From a virus, in IMG/VR virus record IMGVR_UViG_3300045988_120652: 64,000 nucleotides of DNA; one strand, given 5' to 3'. Within the stretch, counting starts at the first letter, position 1; the number at the start of each line of letters is the position of its first letter. A program made the position numbers and the translations under genes. Shown one piece after another: positions 6,032 to 51,152 of the stretch. Under the pieces are notes generated by a model. It was not told where the DNA came from and ran no database searches. It saw nothing but the letters and a program-made list of their open reading frames with translations.

Positions 6032-6694
6032 AAACTTCAGTCCCCAAAAGTCCAAAATCTCGAATTTTCGTAACTACCTAATAATCATGGACTTTATCTG
6101 AAGTCTACTCTTCAAAAGTCCAAAAATCTACTAATTCAGGCTACTACTATATATAAATTTCGCCAATTTTCTTTCTTTCCTATTTTCAAAACTCCCCAAC
6201 CCTAACAATATAATTAGTAGCATTAATGCCTATGGCGTAAATAGTTGATATTTAATAAGTTAAGGGGTATGAGAAAAGGCAACTAAGCGAGAGAAACACT
6301 ATAAAAATGGCCTTATTTCTACTATTCTTTATATATTTTTTGTTCTTTGCGCTCGTATAAGTATATAAAAAATTACCCCGTTTTTAAACTTTTAATAGAT
6401 AAATAGCGGAAAATCAGAAAGTTAAATCACTTTTTGAAAAATTCATTGGGGGGTCACGATGTGGATTTTGGGTGGACAGTAGAAGCGTTTTTCAAAATTA
6501 CGAACTTTTCAGTTTTCGGCGTTTTTTTGGAAAATGGACTCAAAGTTTAAAATTTGGACTTTTGGAGGCTGTAAAGTTCAAAACTAAACTTCAGACTTTG
6601 TACAGTTAAACAACGGTAAGAATTGTTGATAAATAAAATAAAAGTTAATAACAATAGTAAGAATTGTTTTTATCAATTATAATTATTAAATTTG
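6032..6694. repeat. AT-rich ORF-free region with iteron-like repeats (possible origin or early control region)
   Basis: CAAAAGTCCAAAA occurs at 6045-6057 and 6113-6125, and inverted at 6553-6565. AAACTTCAG occurs at 6032 and 6586 and inverted near 6097. GTAAGAATTGTT occurs twice (about 6615 and 6657). No ORF of 60 aa or more lies between 5909 and 6731. Confidence 0.4.
6687..6694 (+). promoter_or_regulatory. Bacteroidetes-type -7 promoter element TAAATTTG upstream of the 6732 gene
   Basis: Matches the TAnnTTTG consensus, 38 nt upstream of the ATG. Confidence 0.45.
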
Positions 6695-22769: not shown

Positions 22770-22876
22770 ATGAAAGCAAAAAACAAGGTGCTGCTTGACA
22801 GAAACGAGAGTTCTCGCCCGCCCTTCTAGCCACCGACTACAAATGCCTACACTGTATAATGATTGAATATGATTAA
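22770..22876 (+). pseudogene. TRD-like mini-ORF U1 (frame-disrupted)
   Basis: ATG 22770 opens MKAKNKVLLDRNESS..., which stops at TAG 22827. Another frame reads EFSPALLATDYKCLHCIMIEYD*, a paralog of U4. It is not connected to an in-frame ATG. Confidence 0.5.
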
Positions 22877-23003
22877 GCAGCATCCATTCGACGATTTTCA
22901 TCAGCGCATCTATTGGAGCGGAACCTGTATAGGAACCGTAACTCAACAATGGGGTAATCCTGCGCCTCGTCACGGATGGAGATTAATGATTGAATATGAC
23001 TGA
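22869..23003 (+). CDS. TRD-like mini-ORF U2 (44 aa)
   Basis: MIKQHPFDDFHQRIYWSGTCIGTVTQQWGNPAPRHGWRLMIEYD*. The ATG lies 5 nt before the U1 stop. RIYxxxGxxxTV resembles the C5-MTase variable-region pattern. Confidence 0.55.
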   Translation: MIKQHPFDDFHQRIYWSGTCIGTVTQQWGNPAPRHGWRLMIEYD

Positions 23004-23313
23004 CCCTCACTACAAACGCGGCACCATCCGCAAGGATGGCAAGCTGTATGGCCGCTATCCCGACGGATCGCTCTACCGCATCTACTCCTCCACCGACCTA
23101 CCTTTCCTACAGTTGGTGGACCGAGCGGGCGAGACGTTCCTACGCATACGCCAAGCCACCGAGCTGGGCTACACCGACTGTCCCTGCCCTGGAGCCGCCG
23201 ACCTAAGTTATCCGTCCTCGGCTCTGAGGCGTAGTCGCACAGTCGGGAGGGGTAAGCTCGTAAACGCTCTGACCGCTGCAAGTGGCGGAATTTGCGTGTT
23301 TGTTGAATTATAA
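22996..23313 (+). CDS. TRD-like ORF U3 (105 aa)
   Basis: IRQATELGYTDCPCPGAADLSYPSSALRRSRTVGRGKLVNALTAASGGICVFVEL* resembles the ATKxGY...PxSxTRRGRVGxxxxxTLT block seen in the variable region of many Dcm-type enzymes. Confidence 0.55.
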   Translation: MTDPHYKRGTIRKDGKLYGRYPDGSLYRIYSSTDLPFLQLVDRAGETFLRIRQATELGYTDCPCPGAADLSYPSSALRRSRTVGRGKLVNALTAASGGICVFVEL

Positions 23314-23328
23314 AAGGAGAAATAAATT

Positions 23329-23700
23329 ATGATTATAACGAATGATTGGCGGCTCTGGCTCGCATCAATGTTGTTTACGTTTGTCGTAACAATTTTGTTT
23401 ATGGCTTACATTTGGTGGACAGAGCGAAAGCTAAAGAAAGAGATAAAAAATGATAGAGAAATAGACTATCAGAATTGTGATGGGTATTTCTTGTGTGTGT
23501 TTACCAAAGGTGGTGGATGCGATTTGCACAGAGCCTCGGATGTCAAGCAGGTTGTTTCGTCTGTAAATAAAGATTACATCAACGTAATAATGACAGATGG
23601 TGAAGTAACGCATTATGAAGATGTCGTATCGTATGAGTTCAAACACGTTTTAGATTTGTCCTTGTATAATTTGAATACAGTAAAAAGAGTAGCTGAATAG
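23329..23700 (+). CDS. Membrane-anchored hypothetical protein
   Basis: One N-terminal TM segment (WRLWLASMLFTFVVTILFMAYIWW). The gene interrupts the TRD array. Confidence 0.45.
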   Translation: MIITNDWRLWLASMLFTFVVTILFMAYIWWTERKLKKEIKNDREIDYQNCDGYFLCVFTKGGGCDLHRASDVKQVVSSVNKDYINVIMTDGEVTHYEDVVSYEFKHVLDLSLYNLNTVKRVAE

Positions 23701-23729
23701 GCTTGTAGAACATTTAACTAATAAAATTT

Positions 23730-24101
23730 ATGAAAAGAGAAAAACGACTGCCCGATGTGCTGTTAATGTCGGCTAAAGCATCCACCTTAATGTCAAACTC
23801 AACCAAGGACGCTTGCATCTGCGTCGAGTCTGACGAACAAAGTGTAAGTTTTAAGGACGAACCGTCGGAAGGTGTAACGATGGATATTACAGCCGAGTAT
23901 CGCAACATCGTTCAGTTGTGGCACCCTGCCACAGAAAAGCCTCATTGCATAGGTCAACTTCTCTGTTGGTGTTACGACAGAACATTCTTCGTACACAACC
24001 ATTACAGCCATGACGATGAAAATTGGCATTTATTCATCAGCACTAACAACATAAAGCGTTATTGCTATATTTCCAATTTGGAACCCGAATGGTTTATTTG
24101 A
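23730..24101 (+). CDS. Hypothetical protein
   Basis: 123-aa ORF. Its stop lies 2 nt before the U4 ATG. Confidence 0.45.
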   Translation: MKREKRLPDVLLMSAKASTLMSNSTKDACICVESDEQSVSFKDEPSEGVTMDITAEYRNIVQLWHPATEKPHCIGQLLCWCYDRTFFVHNHYSHDDENWHLFISTNNIKRYCYISNLEPEWFI

Positions 24102-24102
24102 G

Positions 24103-24234
24103 ATGACTGACATTAAGATATCCGTGCATCCCGTTAGCCATCGGCTCGAATGGCGAGGATGGGGTGATTTCTCGCCCTCCCTTCGAGCCACCGACTACAA
24201 ATGCCCACACTGTATAATGATTGAATATGACTAA
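24103..24234 (+). CDS. TRD-like mini-ORF U4 (43 aa)
   Basis: MTDIKISVHPVSHRLEWRGWGDFSPSLRATDYKCPHCIMIEYD*. SPSLRATDYKxP matches the sPTLtAxDYKxP pattern of C5-MTase target-recognition regions. Confidence 0.6.
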   Translation: MTDIKISVHPVSHRLEWRGWGDFSPSLRATDYKCPHCIMIEYD

Positions 24235-24355
24235 TCTTGACTTCTACCAATATCCTCGTGGCAAAAACGGGGGGGTACTAAACACTATGATTTGTCCGAC
24301 CGTTACTATATCTTCATGGCAGCACAACTATTTTCTGATTGAAGAATATGATTGA
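24227..24355 (+). CDS. TRD-like mini-ORF U5 (42 aa), contains a G7 tract
   Basis: MTNLDFYQYPRGKNGGVLNTMICPTVTISSWQHNYFLIEEYD*. The G7 run at 24269-24275 is in frame. The ATG lies 5 nt before the U4 stop. Confidence 0.55.
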   Translation: MTNLDFYQYPRGKNGGVLNTMICPTVTISSWQHNYFLIEEYD

Positions 24356-24488
24356 CATCCAACCCTTAAATGTCTGTATGGGAGGAATAGCAGTAACACT
24401 GAATACACGATACGAGCGACTTTGCATTGAGCATTTGATGTCACTTGCCCACTTTCCGAGGACAGGCGTAATGATAGAATACGAATAA
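24348..24488 (+). CDS. TRD-like mini-ORF U6 (46 aa)
   Basis: MIDIQPLNVCMGGIAVTLNTRYERLCIEHLMSLAHFPRTGVMIEYE*. It ends 10 nt before the motif IX-X ORF. Confidence 0.55.
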   Translation: MIDIQPLNVCMGGIAVTLNTRYERLCIEHLMSLAHFPRTGVMIEYE

Positions 24489-24498
24489 CAGTAACTAT

Positions 24499-24936
24499 AT
24501 GATCACAAAACTCAATTTCACCGACCGCACCATCAAGAGCTATGCCATCCGCAAGCTCACGCCCAAGGAGTGTTTCCGCTTGATGGGCGTTCGCGACAAC
24601 GTAATCGGCACGATGCAGAGCAGCAATGCCCAGGCAGCCGAACGTCTGCCCGACTGGAAGGGCAAGGGTAAACCCGAAGACATGGCTATATCTGCATCAC
24701 AGCAGTACAAGCAAGCTGGAAACAGCATCGTGGTGGACGTGTTGGCCCACATCTACGAGCAGCTTTTCTACCCCGCCCCGCCCAAGCCTCGCCCTGGCGA
24801 ACAGCTCACGCTCTTCGACGACCTCGAAGACTCGCTGCCCGCTTTGCCGCCCCCCCCGCAGCCGACAAGAACGAGGAGAAGATATTCCTCACCACGTTCT
24901 CCGGCTACGACTCTCAGCTCATGGCAGCCGACGTGA
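24499..24936 (+). CDS. C5 DNA methyltransferase C-terminal module (motifs IX and X) plus a Pro-rich linker; the reading frame is lost at the C8 tract
   Basis: IRKLTPKECFRLMGV is motif IX and QQYKQAGNSIVVDVL is motif X. After ...DDLEDSLPALPPPP, the tail (QPTRTRRRYSSPRSP...) looks like out-of-frame sequence. Confidence 0.8.
   Translation: MITKLNFTDRTIKSYAIRKLTPKECFRLMGVRDNVIGTMQSSNAQAAERLPDWKGKGKPEDMAISASQQYKQAGNSIVVDVLAHIYEQLFYPAPPKPRPGEQLTLFDDLEDSLPALPPPPQPTRTRRRYSSPRSPATTLSSWQPT
24850..24857 (+). repeat. C8 homopolymer at the junction between the motif IX-X and motif I-VIII reading frames
   Basis: Read as GCCG-CCCCCCCC-GCAG. One extra C would give ...LPALPPPPAADKNEEKIFLTTFSGYDSQLMAADV..., fusing the two ORFs in frame. 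Confidence 0.8.
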
Positions 24937-25811
24937 TACGCGAGTGGCATCCCGACTTCCGATGGACGTGCAAGGGATGGAGCGACATCGACAAATACGC
25001 CTGTCAGATGCACAACCTCGTCTTCCCTCAGTTTGCCGACTGCGCCCTGGGCGACATCACCAAGATTGACTGGCACGAGGTGAAACGCTCGCTCAAAGGC
25101 CGCGAGGTTGACCTCTTCACCTATTCCTCGCCCTGCCAGGACATCAGTCAGGCTGGCAAGCAGATGGGTTTGCAGGAGGGCAGCGATACCCGAAGCGCAC
25201 TGCTTTGGCGTGTGGCGGATGCCGTGGAGGTGCTTCGCCCGAAGTATCTCTTGCAGGAGAACGTGGCGGCACTGGTAAGCCAGAAGTTCATGCCCGACTT
25301 TCAGAAGTGGCTCGACAAACTCTCCTCGCTCGGCTATGTCTCTCGCTGGGCTCGTCTTAACGCCAAGAACTACGGTGTGCCGCAGAACCGCGACCGTGTG
25401 TTCTGCCTCTCCATGCGCCGTGACGTGGCCTTCGACTATCAGTTTCCCGAACCCTTCGAGCTGCTTATCCGACTGGAGGATGTGCTCGAAGAGGAAGTGT
25501 CCGACCGCTATTTCCTCAAGGATGATGCCGTGAGCAAGTTCCTCAAGGCAAACGACTCTGACAATGCCTTATTCCTTCAATTCGACCTGCCACCGACACA
25601 TGAGGCGGCAATGTTCCTCAAGACATGGCTCACGCTGCGCATGAACACTTTCAACGGATGGGAGAGGGATTTGGACGAACTGCGCGATTGCATCGAGAAC
25701 GAGCGAGATGTATTAAACAGCGATTTTGCAAGTTTCAGCGAGTATCATACATTCCCTTGCGAAGGTTTTGAGGAATTGTTTAAGGAGAATATGAAGAGGA
25801 AGAAGGAATGA
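24921..25811 (+). CDS. C5 DNA methyltransferase catalytic module (motifs I-VIII). Motif I lies upstream of the first ATG in the same open frame
   Basis: This frame is open back to at least 24783 and encodes KNEEKIFLTTFSGYDSQL (motif I, 24897-24917) before ATG 24921. It continues with WSDIDKYA (II), SSPCQDISQAG (IV, catalytic PCQ), TRSALLW (V), LLQENV (VI) and NYGVPQNRDRVF (VIII). A ~100-aa tail of unknown function follows, with no motif IX/X. Confidence 0.85.
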   Translation: MAADVIREWHPDFRWTCKGWSDIDKYACQMHNLVFPQFADCALGDITKIDWHEVKRSLKGREVDLFTYSSPCQDISQAGKQMGLQEGSDTRSALLWRVADAVEVLRPKYLLQENVAALVSQKFMPDFQKWLDKLSSLGYVSRWARLNAKNYGVPQNRDRVFCLSMRRDVAFDYQFPEPFELLIRLEDVLEEEVSDRYFLKDDAVSKFLKANDSDNALFLQFDLPPTHEAAMFLKTWLTLRMNTFNGWERDLDELRDCIENERDVLNSDFASFSEYHTFPCEGFEELFKENMKRKKE

Positions 25812-25999
25812 GAACTGACAACCCACCCGACCGTGTAATCCGTATCATAGCTGATATGATTAGGGGTGGTAGGTTGCTCACCTGCCCTGCCTCGATGTTC
25901 AGCGCAGAACGTTTCAACGGAGCATTTCACGGCATAGCAATAACCATCATGTCGCGCACCGATTGCAGCGACGTATTCTTTGTAGCAGTAGAATTATGA
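25808..25999 (+). CDS. TRD-like ORF U7 (63 aa)
   Basis: ATGA start/stop overlap with the catalytic module. ...RFNGAFHGIAITIMSRTDCSDVFFVAVEL* has the same VEL ending as U3 and U16. Confidence 0.5.
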   Translation: MRTDNPPDRVIRIIADMIRGGRLLTCPASMFSAERFNGAFHGIAITIMSRTDCSDVFFVAVEL

Positions 26000-26142
26000 T
26001 ACTCCCATTTAACACAGAATCCGATGGTACATCACACACTATTAAATCCCAATATTTCAAAATGGGAGCAGCGAATGTGCTCGCCATTTCGTTTGACGGT
26101 GCCAACTTCAAAGCCACTGGCGCAATCGTGATATATGAATAA
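25996..26142 (+). CDS. TRD-like mini-ORF U8 (48 aa)
   Basis: MILPFNTESDGTSHTIKSQYFKMGAANVLAISFDGANFKATGAIVIYE*. TxKSQYxKMGxxN resembles a known C5-MTase TRD pattern. ATGA overlap with U7. Confidence 0.55.
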   Translation: MILPFNTESDGTSHTIKSQYFKMGAANVLAISFDGANFKATGAIVIYE

Positions 26143-26287
26143 CAACCCTCGCCCCATTATCCTCGGCTCCTACAGCCCCTCGCAGAACGGCATCATCGTG
26201 TCGCCACACGGCATAGCCTTGTGCATAGTCGGGGGAGGTAAGGGTCACGACGTGGATAAACCGAAAATATTGATAGAGTATGATTAA
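26135..26287 (+). CDS. TRD-like mini-ORF U9 (50 aa)
   Basis: MNNNPRPIILGSYSPSQNGIIVSPHGIALCIVGGGKGHDVDKPKILIEYD*. It resembles SQxxRVYxxxGxxPTLxAxxGGxxxxxPxIL. Confidence 0.6.
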   Translation: MNNNPRPIILGSYSPSQNGIIVSPHGIALCIVGGGKGHDVDKPKILIEYD

Positions 26288-26463
26288 TCGTTCCGTCCTC
26301 GTCCAACTACCGCACCGAGGAAGCCAAAGCCTTCCGTCAAGAGCATGGCGACCGAGGAGGGTGTAAATACGGCGACAAGTATCACCGCCCAAGTCCGTGG
26401 CCGTAGAGCAATTCGATAACAACAGTAACAAAAGACAACCTATTATGCTTAACATTCATCTGA
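26280..26463 (+). pseudogene. TRD-like unit U10 (degenerate)
   Basis: The TRD-like frame reads NYRTEEAKAFRQEHGDRGGCKYGDKYHRPSPWP(TAG)SNSITTVTKDNLLCLTFI*. It is a paralog of U11, but the ATG (26280) is in another frame and there is an in-frame TAG at 26404-26406. Confidence 0.45.
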
Positions 26464-26621
26464 TACACGAAGCCAGAACCGAACACGCGAAAGCCGTGCG
26501 TCGCTTAATCGGCACTAACGACTTCCGTGATAAGGAATGGCATCTGCGACAAGGATGTTGGATGCAATGTATAGGTACTTCCCTCACCACTGACAATCTG
26601 ATTGCAATATGTTACGATTAA
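26397..26621 (+). CDS. TRD-like ORF U11 (alternative start ATG 26445)
   Basis: ...HEARTEHAKAVRRLIGTNDFRDKEWHLRQGCWMQCIGTSLTTDNLIAICYD* fits the RTExAKxxR...R...LTTxxKDNL class of Dcm variable regions. Confidence 0.5.
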   Translation: MAVEQFDNNSNKRQPIMLNIHLIHEARTEHAKAVRRLIGTNDFRDKEWHLRQGCWMQCIGTSLTTDNLIAICYD

Positions 26622-26648
26622 TAGTACAAATAATAAACAAAAAGAAAT

Positions 26649-26942
26649 ATGAGTCTTTACGCAGAAAAAATAATAGTCAGAGACCACGAACGTAATGAAG
26701 ATGTTGATGTGGCTTTCGGGCACAACACTATTTGCGACTGTGTTACTATCCGCCGAGGAGAAGATACTGTTTGTTTGTCGGACGACGAGTTCGATGCCCT
26801 TGCAGTGTTGATGATACGCGACTTTGTATCGAGGGAGAGTATCGAAAACGCAATAGAGCTAACCAGTACAGACAAGAAGAACCCATATCGCATATTCATA
26901 GCACGAACTGTGGATGATGAAAAATGGAATGGGGATGATTGA
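26649..26942 (+). CDS. Hypothetical protein embedded in the TRD array
   Basis: 97-aa acidic ORF with no TRD-like pattern. It ends ...GDD*, with the U12 ATG 5 nt before its stop, which is the same junction geometry. Confidence 0.45.
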   Translation: MSLYAEKIIVRDHERNEDVDVAFGHNTICDCVTIRRGEDTVCLSDDEFDALAVLMIRDFVSRESIENAIELTSTDKKNPYRIFIARTVDDEKWNGDD

Positions 26943-27106
26943 CTTTCGCATAGCAGCCTTCCGAGGCCGTGCCCCCGATAATCCGTCCAACCGCAAGCAT
27001 CCCTCCAACGGACGCTTCTTTCAGCGAATGGAGATAAACGGGGGGTACAACCAACACCCTCACATCAGTAGGCAAAGACAATATGGTATTGATAACGTAT
27101 GATTAA
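26935..27106 (+). pseudogene. TRD-like unit U12, out of frame at a G6 tract
   Basis: MIDFRIAAFRGRAPDNPSNRKHPSNGRFFQRMEINGG runs up to G6 (27040-27045). The next frame continues TTNTLTSVGKDNMVLITYD*. Seven Gs would give one intact ORF of the RGRxxxNP...QRxE...NTLTSVxKDN class. Confidence 0.55.
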
Positions 27107-27247
27107 ACAAATCCCTTTCGTACAACGCATATCCCAGCTCTGCCCACGTCGGGGTATTCCACGGCATTGTCCGCCCGCTACGACGGATGGGCAGGGCTCT
27201 ACGATGAACACGGACAGCACGCCATTGTATTGATAGAATATGAATAG
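27099..27247 (+). pseudogene. TRD-like unit U13, out of frame at a G4 tract
   Basis: The ATG frame reads MIKQIPFVQRISQLCPRRG (like U2). The TRD-like continuation GYSTALSARYDGWAGLYDEHGQHAIVLIEYE* (like U6) is in another frame. One extra G at 27151-27154 would join them. Confidence 0.45.
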
Positions 27248-27380
27248 GCATACACTAAATTGTCCGTCCGGCATCTGCTGCGTCCTGACATCGCATTACG
27301 CAAGAGAAGGATGGGCGAATATAGCAAGCAATACAACATCACAATGCAAAGCACCCGCAGTATTGATAGAATATGATTGA
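27240..27380 (+). CDS. TRD-like mini-ORF U14 (46 aa)
   Basis: MNRHTLNCPSGICCVLTSHYAREGWANIASNTTSQCKAPAVLIEYD*, a paralog of U8. Confidence 0.55.
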   Translation: MNRHTLNCPSGICCVLTSHYAREGWANIASNTTSQCKAPAVLIEYD

Positions 27381-27543
27381 CAAGTATTACATCGGATGGG
27401 TACGCAGCGGCAAGGGCCTCGTAAAGAGACTACCGCGCAAACGGATAGCCAATGCCGTGACAACATCGCCACCAGGCTGCTTTGCCGACCCTCGCGATGG
27501 ACTGGGCAACACCACACCGCATATAGTATATGAATATGAATGA
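27373..27543 (+). CDS. TRD-like mini-ORF U15 (56 aa)
   Basis: MIDKYYIGWVRSGKGLVKRLPRKRIANAVTTSPPGCFADPRDGLGNTTPHIVYEYE*. Confidence 0.5.
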   Translation: MIDKYYIGWVRSGKGLVKRLPRKRIANAVTTSPPGCFADPRDGLGNTTPHIVYEYE

Positions 27544-27700
27544 CACCGCACGCATCTTCGTAGTCGGCATGATGCAGACACCACCCTACGACCGAATGTT
27601 TGAGCAGAGCTGCCGCGTGTATTCCGCAAAAGGAATATCGCCTACGCTGCATACGCAAGGGGGGGGGGATAGAGAGATAAAGGTATTAGTGGAACTATAA
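27530..27700 (+). CDS. TRD-like mini-ORF U16 (54-56 aa), contains a G10 tract
   Basis: M(NM)NDTARIFVVGMMQTPPYDRMFEQSCRVYSAKGISPTLHTQGGGDREIKVLVEL*. RVYSxxGISPTLxxxGGG is a classic Dcm variable-region pattern. The G10 run (27659-27668) is in frame and encodes GGG. Confidence 0.6.
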   Translation: MNMNDTARIFVVGMMQTPPYDRMFEQSCRVYSAKGISPTLHTQGGGDREIKVLVEL

Positions 27701-28295: not shown

Positions 28296-28349
28296 GGTTC
28301 GAACCTTTGAATGAAAAGGTTCGAACGAATTGAGCAAAACGTTCGAACC
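28296..28349. promoter_or_regulatory. Three GTTCGAAC palindromes at exact 22-bp spacing (operator-like array)
   Basis: GGTTCGAACC at 28296-28305, GGTTCGAAC at 28318-28326 and GTTCGAACC at 28341-28349. Their centres are 22 bp apart, and the array ends about 30 nt upstream of ATG 28380. Confidence 0.5.
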
Positions 28350-28379
28350 CATGTGGTTTGCTCATAAAACTTAATAACT

Positions 28380-28916
28380 ATGGCGATTAAAGCTAAAGTG
28401 ATAGTAAGAAGCAATTCTATCACGAAAGAAAAGGTTGCAAGTGCCAACATCGTTGACTTGCAGCCGATGTCATTCACCGAGTTTTGCGACTACATGGCGC
28501 AGGACTCTACAGTAGGCGTGGCGGACGTGATGGCCGTGATGACGCAGTTGGAGAAGAAGTTGCCGCTTCTGCTCGCTCTGGGCACCAAGGTGCAGGTGTC
28601 TGCCGAGGGCATGGTGGTACGCCCTACCGTTAGCGGCTCGCTCACTCAGAGCCAGCTCAAGGCGAAGCTCGAAGCTCGCAAGGCAGAGGGCGAGGATGTT
28701 GACGTGAACCGCGAGATTACCGCTGCCGACCTCACCACTAAGGACCTCACAGCAGGCGTGGCCATCGACTTCTCAAGGAAGTTCAACGCTGCCTTCGCAC
28801 AGCACGGAATGTTCAAGCGTGTGGGCGACGCTGCTGCAACGAACGCTCCGTCGGCTCCCGGAACAGGTGGCGAGCAGAAGCCGGATGGAACACCGGGCGG
28901 CGAGGTGGACGCATAA
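28380..28916 (+). CDS. Bacteroidetes-type HU-like DNA-binding domain protein
   Basis: SFTEFCDYMAQDSTVGVADVMAVMTQLEKKLPLLLALGTKVQVSAEGM resembles the HU_2-type domain common in Bacteroidales. The C-terminal tail is low-complexity Gly/Pro. Assignment is from memory of the family pattern. Confidence 0.5.
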   Translation: MAIKAKVIVRSNSITKEKVASANIVDLQPMSFTEFCDYMAQDSTVGVADVMAVMTQLEKKLPLLLALGTKVQVSAEGMVVRPTVSGSLTQSQLKAKLEARKAEGEDVDVNREITAADLTTKDLTAGVAIDFSRKFNAAFAQHGMFKRVGDAAATNAPSAPGTGGEQKPDGTPGGEVDA

Positions 28917-28924
28917 TATTCGGA

Positions 28925-29009
28925 ACTACAGAGAACACAGAGAACACAGAGACAGTTTTTACATCGGATTCTTCGGATTGAACTCCGTGTCCTTTGTGTC
29001 CTTTGTAGT
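28925..29009. terminator. Long imperfect hairpin (CTACAGAGAACACAGAG family)
   Basis: Arms at 28925-28951 and 28983-29009 pair over about 27 positions, with G-T pairs and two mismatches. A related hairpin lies at 53931-53992. Confidence 0.45.
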
Positions 29010-29167
29010 TCTACTTCCCACTTATCCCGAAGGCCAAGGGACCGTACTCAGTGAGCCGCATGTCGCCACTCCGTTCAACGTATCTAACGGGCTCTGGTGC
29101 AGACGAGCGAGGAGAAGGAAAACTCAACCACTGCACATTTCTTTCATTAACGGATTTATAGAGAACA

Positions 29168-29791
29168 ATGAACACATTTATATCTACTTTTTTAGGATGG
29201 GCATTCTTTCTTGCTGCCATCTTCGGCTGGACGTTTTTTCTCGCCTTTGTCGTTTGGCGTGTGCGGATAATGCACAAGGAACGTCTTGCAAAGAAAAGCC
29301 AGCGGAAGAGAGAGGAGAAGCGGAAGACCGACTCTGACGACATGCCTGTGCTCCTCAATCCGAAAGAGCGTCGCGAATACATGCTCAACCACATCGAGGA
29401 CGGACGTTTTTACGCAATCTCCTCGCTCCGTGGCTCTGACACCACCATTGTATGCGCCAAGCCGTATGATGCCGAAGAACAAATGCTATCTTGCTACGCT
29501 TACCTCTGGATAAGCGGGCGTGGTGTGTATAATCTGCACGTTAGTGACCCTCGCGGTATATTAAAATTTCGTGATTTTTTTGGCAACAAGGCCCTGCGCA
29601 TCGACTTCGACCGTAATCCTCACCTTGTTGTCTTTGAAGAAGAGAACATTTCTCAGTATATCGTAGATAGAGACTACAACGACTTCGTGCAAAGCTTGCA
29701 AAAGGCAGGATTCGACTGGAAGATTGAGAAGGGCGAAGATAACGGACTGGGCTCTTATAAATATCTCTTGAAAGAAACAAGAACAAAATAG
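29168..29791 (+). CDS. Membrane-anchored hypothetical protein
   Basis: N-terminal TM (FISTFLGWAFFLAAIFGWTFFLAFVVW), then a soluble domain of about 150 aa. Confidence 0.5.
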   Translation: MNTFISTFLGWAFFLAAIFGWTFFLAFVVWRVRIMHKERLAKKSQRKREEKRKTDSDDMPVLLNPKERREYMLNHIEDGRFYAISSLRGSDTTIVCAKPYDAEEQMLSCYAYLWISGRGVYNLHVSDPRGILKFRDFFGNKALRIDFDRNPHLVVFEEENISQYIVDRDYNDFVQSLQKAGFDWKIEKGEDNGLGSYKYLLKETRTK

Positions 29792-29830
29792 CAAGCAACA
29801 ATTCAATAAAACAATTAAATTTCATTTCTT

Positions 29831-30649
29831 ATGAGAAAATTATTTTCAATTCTTTTTGCGTTTGTCGCAGTAGTGATGTTATCCTCGTGCCGTTTTGTGT
29901 CGCCCGATGCCGACGAGGAAGCCGTGTTGGTGAAGAAGCCTTGGTTCTTCGGACACGGAGGAGTAGACAACGACCCCGTTCAGAGTGGTCTGACATGGTG
30001 TGCCATGAGCACACGTGCCGAGACGTTCAAGATTGTTCCGGTACGCCATGAGGTTGTTCTTGACGACATCTTCTCTGACGACAACACACCGCTTGACTTC
30101 CATTCTGTCATAGTCACTCAGGTGGAGCAAGGCAAGTCGCCCGTGCTGTTGCAGAACTATGGACGCGACTGGTTTAACACCAACCTCTACAACTACTTCT
30201 GCAATCTTGTCAGAGACCATATCTCGCAGTATAGTCCGTTCGACTTGATGTCTAACCGTCAGGTATTGAGCACCATCGACAAGAAGATTCTGAAGCAGAT
30301 GCAGGAGTACGTTGCTGCCCTCTCCAAGCACAAGCCGATGCCCGTCATCATCAAGGACGTTATCATCGGCAAGGCTACACCCAACAAGGAACAGCTTGCC
30401 GAAATGAACCGCACGGCAAAGATGGTACAGGCCAAGCAGACGCAGGAACGTGAATATGAGGTTCAGGTGGCTCGCGAGAAGGCCGAGCGCCAAAAGGCTG
30501 TGGCAGACAAGGCGTATATGAGCGAGATGAATCTTAGCCCGCAGCAGTTTATTCAGCTTAAATGGGTGGAGACGGTGGCTCAGAAGCAGGGCGCAAACAT
30601 AGACGTGCTCGTAGGCCCGGCTGAGCACATGTGGAATATCAAACGATAA
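29831..30649 (+). CDS. SPFH/band-7-like lipoprotein
   Basis: Lipoprotein signal MRKLFSILFAFVAVVMLSSC. The body has a prohibitin-like pattern and a C-terminal coiled coil (QAKQTQEREYEVQVAREKAERQKAVADKA). The 260-aa antisense ORF is considered spurious. Confidence 0.55.
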   Translation: MRKLFSILFAFVAVVMLSSCRFVSPDADEEAVLVKKPWFFGHGGVDNDPVQSGLTWCAMSTRAETFKIVPVRHEVVLDDIFSDDNTPLDFHSVIVTQVEQGKSPVLLQNYGRDWFNTNLYNYFCNLVRDHISQYSPFDLMSNRQVLSTIDKKILKQMQEYVAALSKHKPMPVIIKDVIIGKATPNKEQLAEMNRTAKMVQAKQTQEREYEVQVAREKAERQKAVADKAYMSEMNLSPQQFIQLKWVETVAQKQGANIDVLVGPAEHMWNIKR

Positions 30650-46494: not shown

Positions 46495-49194
46495 GTGAAT
46501 ATGGAAAAGAAGTACATTGACATGGGTAGTGTCGGCATGCACCCTAAAGGGGCATACGACGCGAGTGTGACTTACTGTAAGCTACAGCTTGTGACGCACG
46601 GCGGCAACACCTATCTGAGCAAGGCGGACGGCAACATCGGGCACGAGCCTGTGGGTGAGGACGAGTGGTGGAGCCTGCTCGTGGACGCTAAGAGCGCTCA
46701 CGACGGTGCTCAGAGTGCGCAGGAGGCTGCGGAAGCGGCTAACGCTGCCGCCCAGACTGCTAATGACAAGGCTGCGGAAGCTGCCCAGGCTGCGGAGAGC
46801 GTGACTACTGCTACGGCAGGGCTACAGGCTGCTTTGGACAAGGTGGATGCAGCGGCTACGGCTGCGACTTCGGCTTCGGCTTCGGCACAGGCTCAGGCAA
46901 GCCGTGCGCAGGAGGCTGCTGAGCAGGGCGAAGCTCTCAACCTACAGCTTACCGACACGCTGCGTAAGGCTAAGGCGGAGGTGGATAAGGCTGTGGCTAT
47001 TAACAATACGGCAACAGCTAATGAGCAGGAGCGCGTGAAGGCTGAGCATGAGCGTGCAGATGCCAGCCAGCAGGCTGTGATGAACGCTAACACGGCTGCT
47101 GATTCTGCAAATACTGCTGCCGAGAAGGCTAACGGAGGCGCAGAAAAGGTGTCTGCTGCGGTAACTGCTGCCAGCAACGTTAACGCGACTCTTGCTGACG
47201 ACGGATTGCTGACTGTGACTAATCGCAACGGTGAGAGTAAAAGCGTGAAAGTAGGTGAAGGCGAGAAGGTGAACCAGCTTGTAGCGGACATGAAGGAGAC
47301 TAAGGAGGCTGTGGCACAGAACGCTGCGGACATTGCCGAACTGAAGGAGAACGTTAAGGACTACTATGTAGGCGAGAACGACGAGGTGACGGGCGACCCT
47401 CACTTCAAGAACTGCAAGGGCAACAAGGATTTCTTGGGCGAATGGCATCCGTTCCTTATCGACCATACCGACAACACTGGCGAGGCTACACACCCCGTAG
47501 GTCAGCTGATGGACAATAATCACTTCCGCTTTGTGTCGGGTGCGTTTGCGCCTACCGTTGGTATTACAGAGGAAATGCGTGCTGCGTGTGATGTACAACT
47601 CTATACCGATGCCGAGCACACTACCCCACTGACACTGAAAAATGGTGTCGTCGTTACTGATAAGGCTGGCGCACATCCTTACGATGCAACAGAGGTGTAC
47701 AACTCGCTTGGTTTGGTAGACTTGTACGACGGCGAGGGTAACAAGGTGCGTCAGTTATTGCCTTGGGAGACCACAGAGACCAAGTATTCGGTGATGATTG
47801 GTCGCTACGACACCCTATATCCAGTAGACCGCCAGACAGGCGAGAGCGGTAAGGTGCTGTCGGGTATATTCAAGCGTCAGGTGCGCTACGACGGCATTGA
47901 TACGGGCAAATACCCGTTGCTTGGTACGGCATTGGCACCATGCCTGGTGACGACAGTGGGCAACAAGACACGCAACTTCTTCTTTGCGTATGCGGTAGGT
48001 GACGCTAATACTGCAAGCGGTGCGAGCTCAGCAGGCGCGGACATGTGCTCGATGTTTGACGGAGAGGACAGGACTTATCCGCGGTACAGTATTAACCAGA
48101 TGAGTGACATGCAGTACGCACGAGCTAACAATGCTGACGTAAATGCACCAGTGCCGTTTGCCGAAGGCGGTTATCACGCTATCAACACCTTCACGTTGTG
48201 CATGGAACTGCTTTATGGTACAAAGTATCTGCATGACAAGAACTTGTTCGGCTCGGGAATATCGAGCAACGACTCATGTGCATCGGCGGATGACTGGATG
48301 AATAACGGTGGCGTGAGGGTGCGCGAGAAAGGCACTACAGACTGGACATATAAAAAATGGGGCGACCAAACGCCGTTTGGCGTAAAGTCGGATATGAGCA
48401 AGGTTGGTTTTTCGAACTTTGTCAATCAGGAGAAACCGAAGGAGCAGTGTATGGAGAGTCAGATGGCAGCATCGTGGGCTGTGGAATTTGGCATAGCAGA
48501 AGATACGGAGTATGAGGCATACGGACAGACGTATCGCTACAGAAATGTGACAGGAGTAAAGGGACTGGCTGACGGCGTGATGAACTGCAAGGTGTATCGC
48601 ATCAAGACAGGTGCGTGTATGGGTTATAAGGCTGCGGACAGTAAGGTTGAGTATGACTGTGAGTTGTGTCTACGTCTTAGTCTTGTACATGGTATGAACC
48701 TAAGCGGAGACGTGTTCGGCTACTGGGGCGGCGGCATGGAAATGGTGGGCACGGGAAAGCAGCAGGAGAATACTATCCAGGACAAGATAAAGAACACCTA
48801 CATAGACTTCTACCTTGAGCCAAAACAGAAGAACTGGCTCATGGAAAATAAAACCACCCTTAGCGACTTCAAGACGTTTGCATTTGAGGGCGTGTATGCC
48901 AAGATAGGCACGTTCGGACCTCCAATATTAGGCGGCGGTTACTTCAAGAAGCGTATGGGGCTAACTCCTTACAAGACGGAGAACGGCGGAAATATAGATT
49001 CTTATCAATGCTGCTACGGATGGGCAGAACCGTATTGGCTTGACCGATACGGGCAGCGCGTTCGTATAGCCGTGCGCTTTCGTGGCTTTGCGTCTGCTGC
49101 GTATTGTTCGCCTCGGTTTCTGTATGCGTACTACTCGGCTGCTCATACGTCCGTGTCTTATGGCGGTTCTGCCCAGTGTCGCATCGTGCAATAG
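46495..49194 (+). CDS. Tail fibre / receptor-binding protein carrying the DGR variable region at its C-terminus (likely start ATG 46501)
   Basis: Ala/Gln/Glu-rich coiled N-terminal part. The C-terminal 38 codons are the VR (RFRGFASAAYCSPRFLYAYYSAAHTSVSYGGSAQC), which corresponds to the TR-encoded RFRGNANNANCSPRYLNANNSAANTNVNNGGSAQR. Confidence 0.8.
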   Translation: MNMEKKYIDMGSVGMHPKGAYDASVTYCKLQLVTHGGNTYLSKADGNIGHEPVGEDEWWSLLVDAKSAHDGAQSAQEAAEAANAAAQTANDKAAEAAQAAESVTTATAGLQAALDKVDAAATAATSASASAQAQASRAQEAAEQGEALNLQLTDTLRKAKAEVDKAVAINNTATANEQERVKAEHERADASQQAVMNANTAADSANTAAEKANGGAEKVSAAVTAASNVNATLADDGLLTVTNRNGESKSVKVGEGEKVNQLVADMKETKEAVAQNAADIAELKENVKDYYVGENDEVTGDPHFKNCKGNKDFLGEWHPFLIDHTDNTGEATHPVGQLMDNNHFRFVSGAFAPTVGITEEMRAACDVQLYTDAEHTTPLTLKNGVVVTDKAGAHPYDATEVYNSLGLVDLYDGEGNKVRQLLPWETTETKYSVMIGRYDTLYPVDRQTGESGKVLSGIFKRQVRYDGIDTGKYPLLGTALAPCLVTTVGNKTRNFFFAYAVGDANTASGASSAGADMCSMFDGEDRTYPRYSINQMSDMQYARANNADVNAPVPFAEGGYHAINTFTLCMELLYGTKYLHDKNLFGSGISSNDSCASADDWMNNGGVRVREKGTTDWTYKKWGDQTPFGVKSDMSKVGFSNFVNQEKPKEQCMESQMAASWAVEFGIAEDTEYEAYGQTYRYRNVTGVKGLADGVMNCKVYRIKTGACMGYKAADSKVEYDCELCLRLSLVHGMNLSGDVFGYWGGGMEMVGTGKQQENTIQDKIKNTYIDFYLEPKQKNWLMENKTTLSDFKTFAFEGVYAKIGTFGPPILGGGYFKKRMGLTPYKTENGGNIDSYQCCYGWAEPYWLDRYGQRVRIAVRFRGFASAAYCSPRFLYAYYSAAHTSVSYGGSAQCRIVQ
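49068..49181 (+). repeat. DGR variable region (VR)
   Basis: 114-nt alignment with TR 49424-49537. There are 19 differences, and at 18 of them the TR base is A, mostly at positions 1-2 of AAY codons in the VR reading frame. The remaining one is C in TR versus T in VR. Confidence 0.9.
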
Positions 49195-49202
49195 GCGCAG
49201 CC

Positions 49203-49236
49203 GGGTGCAACCCAGTGCAGCGCGGTGCAACCGCGC
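49203..49236 (+). promoter_or_regulatory. Hairpins just downstream of VR (GGTGCAACC x2); candidate DGR homing-enhancing structure
   Basis: GGGT-GCA-ACCC (49203-49213) and GCGCGG-TGCAA-CCGCGC (49220-49236), 22-55 nt after the end of the VR homology. Confidence 0.5.
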
Positions 49237-49423
49237 CATGTCTTTGGCAATCAGAAACAAAATTAGTAACTTTATAGTGGTTTAAAAGATAGAATAAAAT
49301 GAATCAAGACAAAATATTTCCTCAAAAACAGGACAAGCTCAGCATGAGGGCCGAAGCCTCTGAAGCCTGCATGAGAGGTGACGCTATCCATATAGATGAT
49401 AGCTAAAGAGGTTGGTGTCTCCG

Positions 49424-49537
49424 AGCCGTGCGCTTTCGTGGCAATGCGAATAATGCGAATTGTTCGCCTCGGTATCTGAATGCGAACAACTCGGCTGCTA
49501 ATACGAACGTGAATAATGGCGGTTCTGCCCAACGTCG
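49424..49537 (+). repeat. DGR template region (TR)
   Basis: Adenine-rich counterpart of VR, lying in non-coding sequence 226 nt upstream of the RT gene. Confidence 0.9.
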
Positions 49538-49763
49538 GGCATCATAAATGATGCAGAACTAAGAACACGGGAACACCACTCTCGCTCAGGAGAAGCAGAA
49601 AATATCAAAGACAAGGGATGTGAGCGTAGCACGATGGCTGTACGTGATGCGGCGAACGTGACCGAGAGACATCCTGACGGGCAGACAGTCCCGTCAACCT
49701 TTTAAGCCCGACACTGAATATCAACAGCGGAGAAATCCGCATAAAAACATATATATAACAAAC

Positions 49764-51152
49764 GTGCATAGACCTAACTACATCCCCTTCACTGCCGACG
49801 ACTACATAAAGGCTGTGTGGAGTGCCGCAAAAGGCAGAAAGAAAAGACCCGAGGTAAAGGAGGCATTGAAGGATGTAAAAGGGCTATGCGCAAGTATTGA
49901 ACAACATCTCAAAGATGGAAGCTGGCATGAGGACATCAAGTACCGGAAGCTGACCAAGGTGAACAACAACAAGAAGGTGAGGCATATCGACGCGCCTACG
50001 TTCAGAACTTTAGTGTATGAACATCTGCTGAAGAACAAGTTGGAGCCGATATACCGCAGACGCGACCCGTTGGTGTCGATTAACTGCAAGGAAGGATGCG
50101 GAATAACACCATCGGCGAAGCACAAGGAACTGAAAAGCCACTATGTGCTGCCAAGAGTGAAGCACCTGTTCTACGACCTGCGGGATATGGACTGGGTAGT
50201 GACTGCCGACCAACGTCAATGCTACGCTCACGTGAAGCCGAGCGTACTGCGCAAGGAACTGAAATATCTTATTGGCGACAAGTGGCTGATAGACTTCGCT
50301 GTGGAGCTGTGCTTTGTTGACGGGCAGTTGCCTGTAGGCACACCTACGAGTCCGCTGGCTCACCACATACTGATGCTGAGATTCCATGAATGGCTGTGCC
50401 GAAACACCGAATGGCGGCTGTGCTATGCCGACAACTGCATGGTAGCTTGCCGGACGAAGGAAGAAGCACAACAGATGAAGTGGCGAATAAGGCAGTATTG
50501 GTGGTATGAGCTGAAGATGAGGGCGAAGCGTACAGATACGAAGGTTGCTAATATCAACGACGGTAGAGGGATTGACTTCTGCGGTTATAGGGTGATACGC
50601 AACGCCGACAAGAACGTGACAGACTCGAACAAGGGATATTGCCTTATACGCAAGGGCACATTGCTGAGAGCAAGGATGTGTAACAACGACAATTCGTGGG
50701 GCAGCTACTTCGGACTGATGCGGCACACGGACGGATTCGGAGAGATGGTAAAAATAGAAAAGGAGATGAAGTTAAGAGAACTGACAAAAAAGATTCGCAT
50801 AGACCGCAAGATGGACGCTCCGAATATCAAGCCTCTGGAGTTGGCACGTAGCGGACAGGCGTTCACGGTGTTCGATTACGAGATACGCAAGAGCGAGAAG
50901 TCGGGCGAGCCTAACTGGATTAAGATGCTGATAGGTATGCCGGAGGTGACCGAAGACGGCGAGCTTACGGGCAAGATTGTTGCCAGGGAGGTGCATGGTG
51001 GAATGATGGGCATTGTGGCTTGGATGGTGGCAGCGGAGCAGGAGTATGGCAAGAAGACCTTGCTGCCGTTGGAGGACGTGAGGATTGTGGACGAGTGCGG
51101 ATATATCTTTGAAGGCTCGACTAATCAGATGCAGTACATTGATGAATGTTGA
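49764..51152 (+). CDS. Reverse transcriptase (DGR-associated, divergent; GTG start)
   Basis: RT-like blocks are DQRQCYAHVKPSVLRKEL (motif 2-like), QLPVGTPTSPLAHHIL (motif 4-like) and RLCYADNCMVAC (motif 5, YADN in place of YxDD). A C-terminal extension of about 140 aa follows. The gene is adjacent to the TR. Confidence 0.8.
   Translation: MHRPNYIPFTADDYIKAVWSAAKGRKKRPEVKEALKDVKGLCASIEQHLKDGSWHEDIKYRKLTKVNNNKKVRHIDAPTFRTLVYEHLLKNKLEPIYRRRDPLVSINCKEGCGITPSAKHKELKSHYVLPRVKHLFYDLRDMDWVVTADQRQCYAHVKPSVLRKELKYLIGDKWLIDFAVELCFVDGQLPVGTPTSPLAHHILMLRFHEWLCRNTEWRLCYADNCMVACRTKEEAQQMKWRIRQYWWYELKMRAKRTDTKVANINDGRGIDFCGYRVIRNADKNVTDSNKGYCLIRKGTLLRARMCNNDNSWGSYFGLMRHTDGFGEMVKIEKEMKLRELTKKIRIDRKMDAPNIKPLELARSGQAFTVFDYEIRKSEKSGEPNWIKMLIGMPEVTEDGELTGKIVAREVHGGMMGIVAWMVAAEQEYGKKTLLPLEDVRIVDECGYIFEGSTNQMQYIDEC

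Follow-up and report, generated by a model that had tools for sequence, protein, structure and literature searches.

Length-polymorphic G/C tracts as candidate frame switches in a phage C5 cytosine methyltransferase locus with detached minigenes

The stretch analysed here (the window) comprises 64,000 nucleotides of viral DNA, IMG/VR record IMGVR_UViG_3300045988_120652. Between positions 22770 and 27700 it carries the core of a C5 cytosine methyltransferase, set in an array of ∼16 small open reading frames (ORFs) of 42-105 aa (minigenes U1 to U16), which look like detached target-recognition domains (TRDs). An initial annotation, made from the letters alone, had noted that G and C homopolymers cluster in this locus and had proposed a comparison of their lengths among related phages as a check. 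That comparison was made: tract lengths differed between near-identical phages, and in-frame (ON) and out-of-frame (OFF) lengths were found at the same sites. The tracts are very probably real and hypermutable.

The methyltransferase core and its minigene array

The conceptually fused core matched PF00145 (E = 1e-48), and its alignments to M.MpeI and M.HhaI in the PDB gave a permuted motif order. Motifs IX (RKLTPKECFRLMG) and X (QAGNSIV) are encoded by the ORF from 24499, and motifs I (FSGYDSQ), IV (SPCQDIS), VI (LLQENV) and VIII (VPQNRDRVF) lie downstream of a C8 tract, in another frame, to 25811; the conserved C5-methyltransferase motifs I, IV (PCQ), VI (ENV), VIII (QxRxR), IX and X (GNS) are all present. 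As annotated, the C8 tract is out of frame; it splits motifs IX-X (frame 1, ATG 24499) from motifs I-VIII (frame 0). The earliest start codon in frame 0 is at 24921, already past motif I. In 133/151 related loci the core is a single ORF of ∼437 aa, and the AlphaFold2 model of the core has a pLDDT of ∼85-95. At its C terminus the model has a helical extension of ∼90 aa (residues ∼350-437, window 25550-25811; pLDDT 78-90), which might, as a speculation, be a docking surface for detached TRD proteins.

The motif order IX-X-I-VIII is that of Type H permuted enzymes. The N-terminal TRD that these carry on the same chain is absent; the core begins ∼15 aa ahead of motif IX, and TRD-like sequence is found in separate ORFs. 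Tandem TRDs in one polypeptide between motifs VIII and IX, as in enzymes of the SPR/phi3T type, are likewise absent, each unit having its own start and stop.

The minigenes (Table 1) end in ..IEYD, ..IEYE or ..VEL and contain the T-[LIV]-T/S and GGG loops typical of TRDs. The ATG of a minigene overlaps the preceding stop codon by exactly 8 nt (..GAATATGAnTAA) or by 4 nt (ATGA), a regularity from which the minigenes are predicted to be translationally coupled. The 8-nt form is ..GAA TAT GAn TAA with embedded ATG. One or other overlap was seen at all unit junctions between 22869 and 27700, and the arrangement extends to the end of a non-TRD ORF of 97 aa (26649-26942). The repeated ..GAATATGA.. 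at unit junctions was considered as a set of recombination sites and set aside in favour of the simpler reading, a conserved ..EYD/E C terminus plus a coupled start codon. Minigene pN/pS ranged from 0.13 to 0.46; the minigenes are therefore under purifying selection. Two units, U1 and U10, are broken in the window and had been missing from the initial annotation. The frame structure of U1 was also found in seven relatives.

Table 1. Features of the methyltransferase locus in the window
Feature	Coordinates	Strand	Length (aa)	State in window	Remarks
U1	22770-22876	+		Remnant of U4-like minigene	No in-frame start for ...FSPALLATDYKCLHCIMIEYD part; lesion off G/C tracts
U2	22869-23003	+	44	Intact	End ..MIEYD; start overlaps previous stop by 8 nt
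U3	22996-23313	+	105	Intact	End ..VFVEL; start overlaps previous stop by 8 nt
U4	24103-24234	+		Intact	pN/pS 0.20-0.21 (U4, U6)
U5	24227-24355	+	42	Intact	G7 at 24269-24275, codons AAC GGG GGG GTA
U6	24348-24488	+		Intact	pN/pS 0.20-0.21 (U4, U6)
C5 cytosine methyltransferase core	24499-25811	+		Frame-broken	Circularly permuted; motif order IX-X, Pro-rich linker, I, IV, VI, VIII
C8 tract in core linker	24850-24857	+		Motifs I-VIII put out of frame	In-frame lengths C9 or C6
U7	25808-25999	+		Intact	Overlaps core stop by 4 nt
U8	25996-26142	+		Intact	
U9	26135-26287	+		Intact	
U10	26284-26463	+		Pseudogene	Extra A at 26305-26306 (relatives one A); TGG to TAG at 26404-26406
U11	26445-26621	+	58	Intact	
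U12	26935-27106	+		Broken at G6 27040-27045	Frame 1 to frame 2; needs -1 or +2
U13	27099-27247	+		Broken at G4 27151-27154	Frame 0 to frame 2; needs +1; ATG 27099 fits 8-nt overlap rule
U14	27240-27380	+		Intact	pN/pS 0.21
U15	27373-27543	+		Intact	pN/pS 0.46
U16	27530-27700	+	56	Intact	G10 at 27659-27668, GGG of ...SPTLHTQGGGDREIKVLVEL

Pfam searches with single minigenes gave no match, and the sequences of U16 and restored U12 had no meaningful match in the PDB. In a collection of 5.8 billion proteins the only homologues of U16 and U12 were small proteins (47-111 aa), and no precomputed Pfam domain was attached to any of them. A match of these two TRDs to full-length methyltransferases had been expected and was not obtained from this collection; the link to a fused enzyme came instead from cluster representatives. 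The 50%-identity clusters nearest to the core include P0403, P0467 and P0378, permuted enzymes on a single chain that is extended by ∼63 aa at its N terminus. U7 aligned to residues 11-54 of P0403 with 34% identity (E = 7e-6), over a stretch that ends 10 aa ahead of the core homology. This homology suggests that the minigenes arose as detached copies of the TRD that Type H permuted methyltransferases carry at their N terminus; each would pair with the core in trans.

Three non-TRD ORFs lie within the array (23329-24101 and 26649-26942), two of 123 aa, one of which has a hydrophobic segment at its N terminus, and a third of 97 aa; no significant family match was obtained for any of them. Scans of the locus for sigma-70 promoters and terminators returned background levels. 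A tblastx frameshift check of 28300-29900 was uninformative, the DNA there being too alike in all frames to tell.

Tract lengths and reading frames in the window and its relatives

Relatives were collected by scans with the fused core, which returned 143 viral and 173 metagenome relatives, of which 80 loci were kept from each; eight more were taken from genome bins. De-duplication of the viral and metagenome sets left 152 unique loci, on which the analysis was performed. The metagenome contigs had been assembled with SPAdes from Illumina data of the human gut. Two of the eight genome bins are labelled Prevotella, and the hosts of the lineage are probably Prevotella. None of 50,697 phage records was matched by the locus in a megablast search. 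Units were called by their conserved end motif and scored as intact where an in-frame ATG gave at least 38 aa, or as broken where an ATG-started ORF in another frame overlapped the unit.

A homopolymer census of the 64 kb confirmed that the tracts of U5 (G7), the core (C8) and U16 (G10) are its sole G or C runs of seven or more; besides the G6 of U12, runs of six occur at 6448, 22476 and 54853 only. The window contains seven overlapping G7/C7 matches, compared with 2.7 ± 2.1 in dinucleotide shuffles, of which 7/100 reached seven, so that the count inside the window alone is unremarkable. For all three runs to fall inside 3.4 kb, p was ∼0.008 (3r^2-2r^3). The significance of the clustering comes from the relatives, in which 303 G/C runs of seven or more were counted across the 562 kb that the arrays span (0.54 per kb) and 59 in 1213 kb outside (0.049 per kb), an 11-fold difference in density. 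Such runs number 1-7 in nearly all relatives and are, with few exceptions, coding-strand poly-G in the TRD arrays. GGG makes up 4.8% of the glycine codons in the long ORFs of the window. Among Gly-Gly pairs GGG-GGG was found in 0/48 in the long ORFs of the window, 1/191 in flank ORFs and 49/514 in intact minigenes; its rarity outside the minigenes shows that the tract enrichment is not a matter of codon usage.

The initial annotation had placed the G7 of U5 and the G10 of U16 in frame within intact minigenes and had U12 and U13 broken at their G6 and G4 runs, and all of this was upheld. Its further statement, that one added base restores each of the three broken frames, was borne out for the C8 tract and for U13, where most relatives have G5; the G6 of U12 needs either the loss of one base (G5) or the gain of two (G8). 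In the core the added base restores the frame, although each relative that is in frame there has 2 nt fewer than the window. The argument for under-calling built on a consistent +1 requirement accordingly fails, both at U12 and across the family, where 85 broken units need -1 and 71 need +1.

At the minigene sites the lengths present in relatives were G6 and G8 for U5, G6-G9 for U12, G5-G8 for U13, and G7, G8, G9 and G11 for U16. The alleles nearest to that of U5 are both OFF, with G6 (L004) and A6CG8 (L001/L002). A natural intact allele of U12 that is 98% identical (P0241) has MEINGGGTTNTLTSV, reading MEINGGGTTNTL (NGGG), which is G8. At U13, besides the common G5, relatives show a G8 (L013) as well as G6 and G7, the last two out of frame. 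In the family of U16, ∼33/120 database cluster representatives are frameshifted right after TQGGG, into both alternative frames. Interrupted tracts were always in frame in the alignments examined at the window's sites, including every U12 relative shown with the form CGTTGGAGG.

Across the relatives 1054 units were intact and 280 broken. Where the longest G run was at most 5, 920 units were intact and 124 broken (12% broken); where it was 6 or more, 134 were intact and 156 broken (54% broken). By length, intact and broken units numbered 261 and 12 for G5, 16 and 52 for G6, 31 and 44 for G7, 71 and 38 for G8, and 11 and 19 for G9. At least one broken unit was present in 129/152 loci, and 66 unit ends were without a partner ORF. 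Alleles of G6 or longer, in intact or broken members, were found in 15/19 TRD families. At sites whose more frequent in-frame form is G5 or an interrupted tract, alleles with G8 are often ON, which implies passage through OFF lengths and back. That a single lesion would repair 270/280 of the broken units is true by construction of the pipeline and is not evidence.

The core has tracts at two sites. At that of the C8 tract, relatives have GCCGCCCACCGCAGCC (PPTAAD; ...CCCACC...), in frame and 2 nt shorter than the window, and contig L169/P0135 has an in-frame C6 (PPPAAD); relative to them the C8 of the window is an ACC-to-CCC substitution plus two extra C. In a sister clade a poly-C tract lies within motif IX itself (ACC CCC CCC GAA), 62 nt from the core ATG. 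Here C8 is in frame (L063, L069), C7 (L066, L068, L151) and C9 (L148, L149) are out of frame, and every tract interrupted as C5TCC keeps the frame. Since the two sites are separate, core-level tract switches arose at least twice. Broken minigenes made up 16% in core-OFF loci and 21% in core-ON loci; with no excess in the former, the core-OFF states look recent.

The lengths change faster than the surrounding sequence. Over 7 kb no mismatch separates L033 from L034 or L053 from L054, but tract lengths differ at 4 sites in the first pair and at 2 in the second; L001/L002 and L048/L049 are identical, tracts included. In the pair L023/L028 tract differences are in mixed directions. Among groups with identical 40-nt flanks, length was polymorphic in 0% for G3, 0.6% for G4, 7.6% for G5, 44% for G6, 50% for G7, 76% for G8 and 86% for G9. 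For A runs the corresponding values were 4% (A6), 20% (A7) and 25% (A8). Polymorphism thus climbs steeply with tract length and is far higher for G/C than for A/T runs. Three features of contingency loci were found together: homopolymers inside coding sequence whose length sets the frame, length polymorphism far above the substitution rate, and enrichment beyond composition and codon usage.

Two further observations concern sequence diversification elsewhere in these phages. In some relatives a length-polymorphic poly-C tract is apparently intergenic (L033 11171, C7; L034 11173, C8; L032 11636; L025 11640; L048 11643, C8). It lies ∼15 nt upstream of TAACTTTG, which is similar to the Bacteroidetes -7 box TAnnTTTG, and it may be a spacing-type promoter switch for the downstream gene; the window has no counterpart. 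The window also contains a diversity-generating retroelement (49068-51152). Its variable repeat (VR, 49068-49181) is the 3' end of an 899-aa ORF (46495-49194), and downstream are the template repeat (TR, 49424-49537) and the reverse transcriptase (RT) ORF (49764-51152, phrog_1423). The two 114-nt copies differ at 19 positions, and at 18 of these the template copy has an adenine. Together with the tract array, the phage carries two separate diversification devices.

Proposed phase variation and alternative explanations

The organisation described above would be a modular system, with one permuted C5 core (IX-X-I-VIII) and ∼16 coupled minigenes, each encoding only a TRD. Slipped-strand mispairing during phage DNA replication would add or remove bases at the G/C tracts, so that a change in length would act as a frame switch on one specificity minigene, and a tract in the core as a switch for the whole system. 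In the assembled state of the window the core (C8), U12 (G6) and U13 (G4) would be OFF, and U5 (G7) and U16 (G10) ON. A phage population would then be a mixture of methylation patterns, and related phages would protect different DNA sites. This could amount to bet-hedging between hosts that restrict unmethylated sites and hosts with methyl-dependent nucleases that cut methylated ones. A strict phasevarion, in the sense of a methyltransferase-controlled regulon, is not expected for a phage; the expected role of the orphan enzyme is anti-restriction.

That replication slippage toggles the TRD minigenes and, in some lineages, that of the window among them, the core is the reading we favour with moderate confidence. 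We infer slippage as the mechanism, and likewise that a lineage can switch back and forth, that the TRDs function in trans and that the system has adaptive value; adaptive, reversible switching would follow from these. More tentatively, the system can be pictured as a stochastic, combinatorial "methylation wardrobe", in which a core served in trans by at least a dozen mini-TRDs, many with a poly-G switch and in some lineages with a master switch in the core, would give each burst varied sets of protected sites and a hedge against both classical and methyl-dependent restriction; this fuller picture is somewhat less probable than it is improbable.

Several observations weigh against phase variation. 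Both lesions of U10 lie away from G/C tracts, U1 is a remnant, and in the relatives ∼124 broken units are away from long G runs. At the C8 site no tract above C6 was found in any of the 152 related loci, so the C8 tract may be a one-way loss in this genome; with this unique tract and the non-tract lesions of U10, the methyltransferase of the window may be in the course of loss and not just switched off. In-frame stops, mostly one base off the usual codon, have inactivated the core in nine related loci, so that recurrent, irreversible loss of the methyltransferase occurs as well. In both zero-substitution pairs the differences run in one direction, L034 being longer than L033 at every differing tract (+1, +1, +2, +1) and L054 longer than L053 (+1, +1), which could reflect a technical bias at the level of the sample, chance, or an effect of host or replication on the direction of slippage. 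As regards the putative action of the TRDs in trans, an AlphaFold2 model of a U7-core fusion from a 33-row alignment had a folded core and a TRD part with a pLDDT of 23-36. An engineered split of M.MpeI or M.SssI into a core and a TRD-only fragment was inactive (PMC5944983). Finally, the ON and OFF counts are taken over loci that are not phylogenetically independent.

AlphaFold2 without an alignment gave a pLDDT of 31 for U16 plus core. The cores with stop codons are L006, L022, L050, L053/L054, L077, L116, L127 and L138; the stops are at conserved positions, for example QQYK*AGNS and PCQDIS*AGK, and arose by changes of CAA to TAA, CAG to TAG, and TGG to TGA or TAG. Stop-codon recoding was rejected as an explanation, as the stop codons are not the same throughout, two kinds occur in L053 alone, and most lie a single base away from the codon usual at the site.

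The strongest alternative is neutral decay, in which the minigenes are dispensable, their Gly-Gly-Gly and the Pro-Pro codons form slippery runs, and the tracts are mere hot spots of loss, for redundant genes and in the window for the methyltransferase as a whole, with no selection for switching. The off-tract lesions of U10 and U1, the stops in nine related cores, the 124 broken units without G runs of 6 or more, the 66 unit ends without a partner and the restriction of the C8 tract to the window's lineage would all be expected of such decay. It accounts poorly for the enrichment of GGG in the Gly-Gly pairs of minigenes when this codon is shunned genome-wide, for the origin of tracts in 15/19 families and at two separate core sites, for the many ON G8 alleles that imply a return from OFF lengths, for purifying selection on the intact minigenes, and for core-OFF loci without an excess of minigene decay. 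On balance we regard neutral decay as unlikely.

Programmed recoding would have polymerase stutter or ribosomal frameshifting yield some in-frame product from a tract of any length, with the tracts tuning the level of expression. Slippage of transcription on long homopolymers is an established phenomenon of both bacteria and viruses, and the out-of-frame alleles are frequent and otherwise undamaged, as such a mechanism would allow. The slippage signals known are, however, chiefly runs of at least 8-9 A or T, and 134/290 units with G6 or longer are intact, above the one third, which suggests that the frame in the DNA matters. Recoding is accordingly held to be quite improbable.

Least probable is a sequencing or assembly artefact, in which tract lengths were miscalled and all frames are truly intact: homopolymers are the classic site of indel errors and the zero-substitution pairs differ in one direction, but the corrections run both ways in the family (in the window +1, -1/+2 and +1), easily sequenced G6 runs are OFF in 52/68, OFF tracts are present in Illumina contigs at 100-1200x coverage, the same OFF lengths occur in the independent contigs L001 and L002, polymorphism is far lower in A/T runs of equal length, and neither the A8/T8 runs of the window nor its ORFs of 808-1948 aa show a break. 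A/T runs of up to 8 are frequent in the window and the long ORFs that hold them are unbroken, those of 1948, 1593, 945, 899 and 808 aa having been confirmed as intact, one of them with an A8 at 37963. Given the bidirectional corrections and the controls for length, coverage and A/T runs, systematic miscalling is very unlikely and slipped-strand mutation fits. Of the two readings offered by the initial annotation, slippage-driven phase variation and homopolymer under-calling, real slippage is thus favoured by the comparative data.

Phase-variable methyltransferases are a textbook strategy of bacteria, and hypermutable tracts in phages have been recognised only recently, chiefly in receptor-binding genes. 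In the abundant human-gut phage lineage studied here, what this mechanism appears to control, module by module, is the anti-restriction repertoire of the phage. If phase variation is the correct reading, phages diversify their epigenetic disguise stochastically, and close gut phages can differ in host range without a difference in coding sequence. The locus would also provide a natural modular C5-methyltransferase, a core with swappable TRDs of 45-60 aa, usable to engineer methylation specificity. For annotation and polishing, frameshifts at G/C runs in such loci should not be "corrected" automatically.

Comparison with known systems

In the phase-variable methyltransferases of bacteria (Type III mod and Type I hsd, the phasevarions) a simple sequence repeat (SSR) or homopolymer shifts the frame, giving ON and OFF states and heterogeneous methylation. 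The locus described here is similar in that a repeat within the gene shifts the reading frame of a methyltransferase or specificity gene. It differs from the bacterial Type I and III systems in being a phage orphan C5 enzyme, in having switches in many TRD minigenes as well as in the core, and in its expected role, which is evasion of restriction and not control of a regulon.

The multispecific C5-methyltransferases of the Bacillus phages SPR, phi3T, rho11s and H2 carry several TRDs in one polypeptide, constitutively present. They share with the present system one catalytic framework, several TRDs and several protected targets; here, unlike in those enzymes, each TRD is its own ORF of 42-105 aa, and many have their own frame switch.

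In Type H permuted C5 enzymes such as M.BssHII and M.Alw26I, motifs IX-X precede I-VIII and the TRD is at the N terminus of the same chain (PMC5944983, PMC3404938). The relatives P0403, P0467 and P0378 keep this N-terminal TRD, whereas the TRD in the window appears detached and multiplied. Assembly from two polypeptides has a precedent in the two-subunit C5 enzymes M.AquI and M.EcoHK31I (PMC5944983, PMC3404938), whose split points differ from that of the window's system.

Hypermutable polyG tracts are reported for Campylobacter Fletchervirus phages (Sorensen et al. 2021, Cell Rep 35:109214), and contingency loci have been reported in T2/T4 (bioRxiv 10.1101/2025.10.21.683753). As proposed for the present locus, G runs of 7-11 or other homopolymers frameshift phage genes reversibly and create phenotypic subpopulations. 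The Fletchervirus and T2/T4 tracts are mainly in receptor-binding and other genes, whereas those described here are in methylation specificity modules, in 15 minigene families of a gut-phage lineage. The Bordetella phage BPP-1 has a polyG tract in a methylase gene (Liu et al. 2004, via bioRxiv 10.1101/2025.10.21.683753), which according to that preprint was not studied further. BPP-1 resembles the phage of the window in having polyG in a methylase gene and also a diversity-generating retroelement; it differs in that one tract lies in one conventional gene, unlike the many minigene tracts of the window.

A literature search on crAss-like phages, methyltransferases and target recognition domains returned no paper describing such detached, switchable TRD minigenes. 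The proposed mechanism is already known; what sets the locus apart is its target, a set of detached TRD minigenes for one permuted core, with tracts in 15 families.

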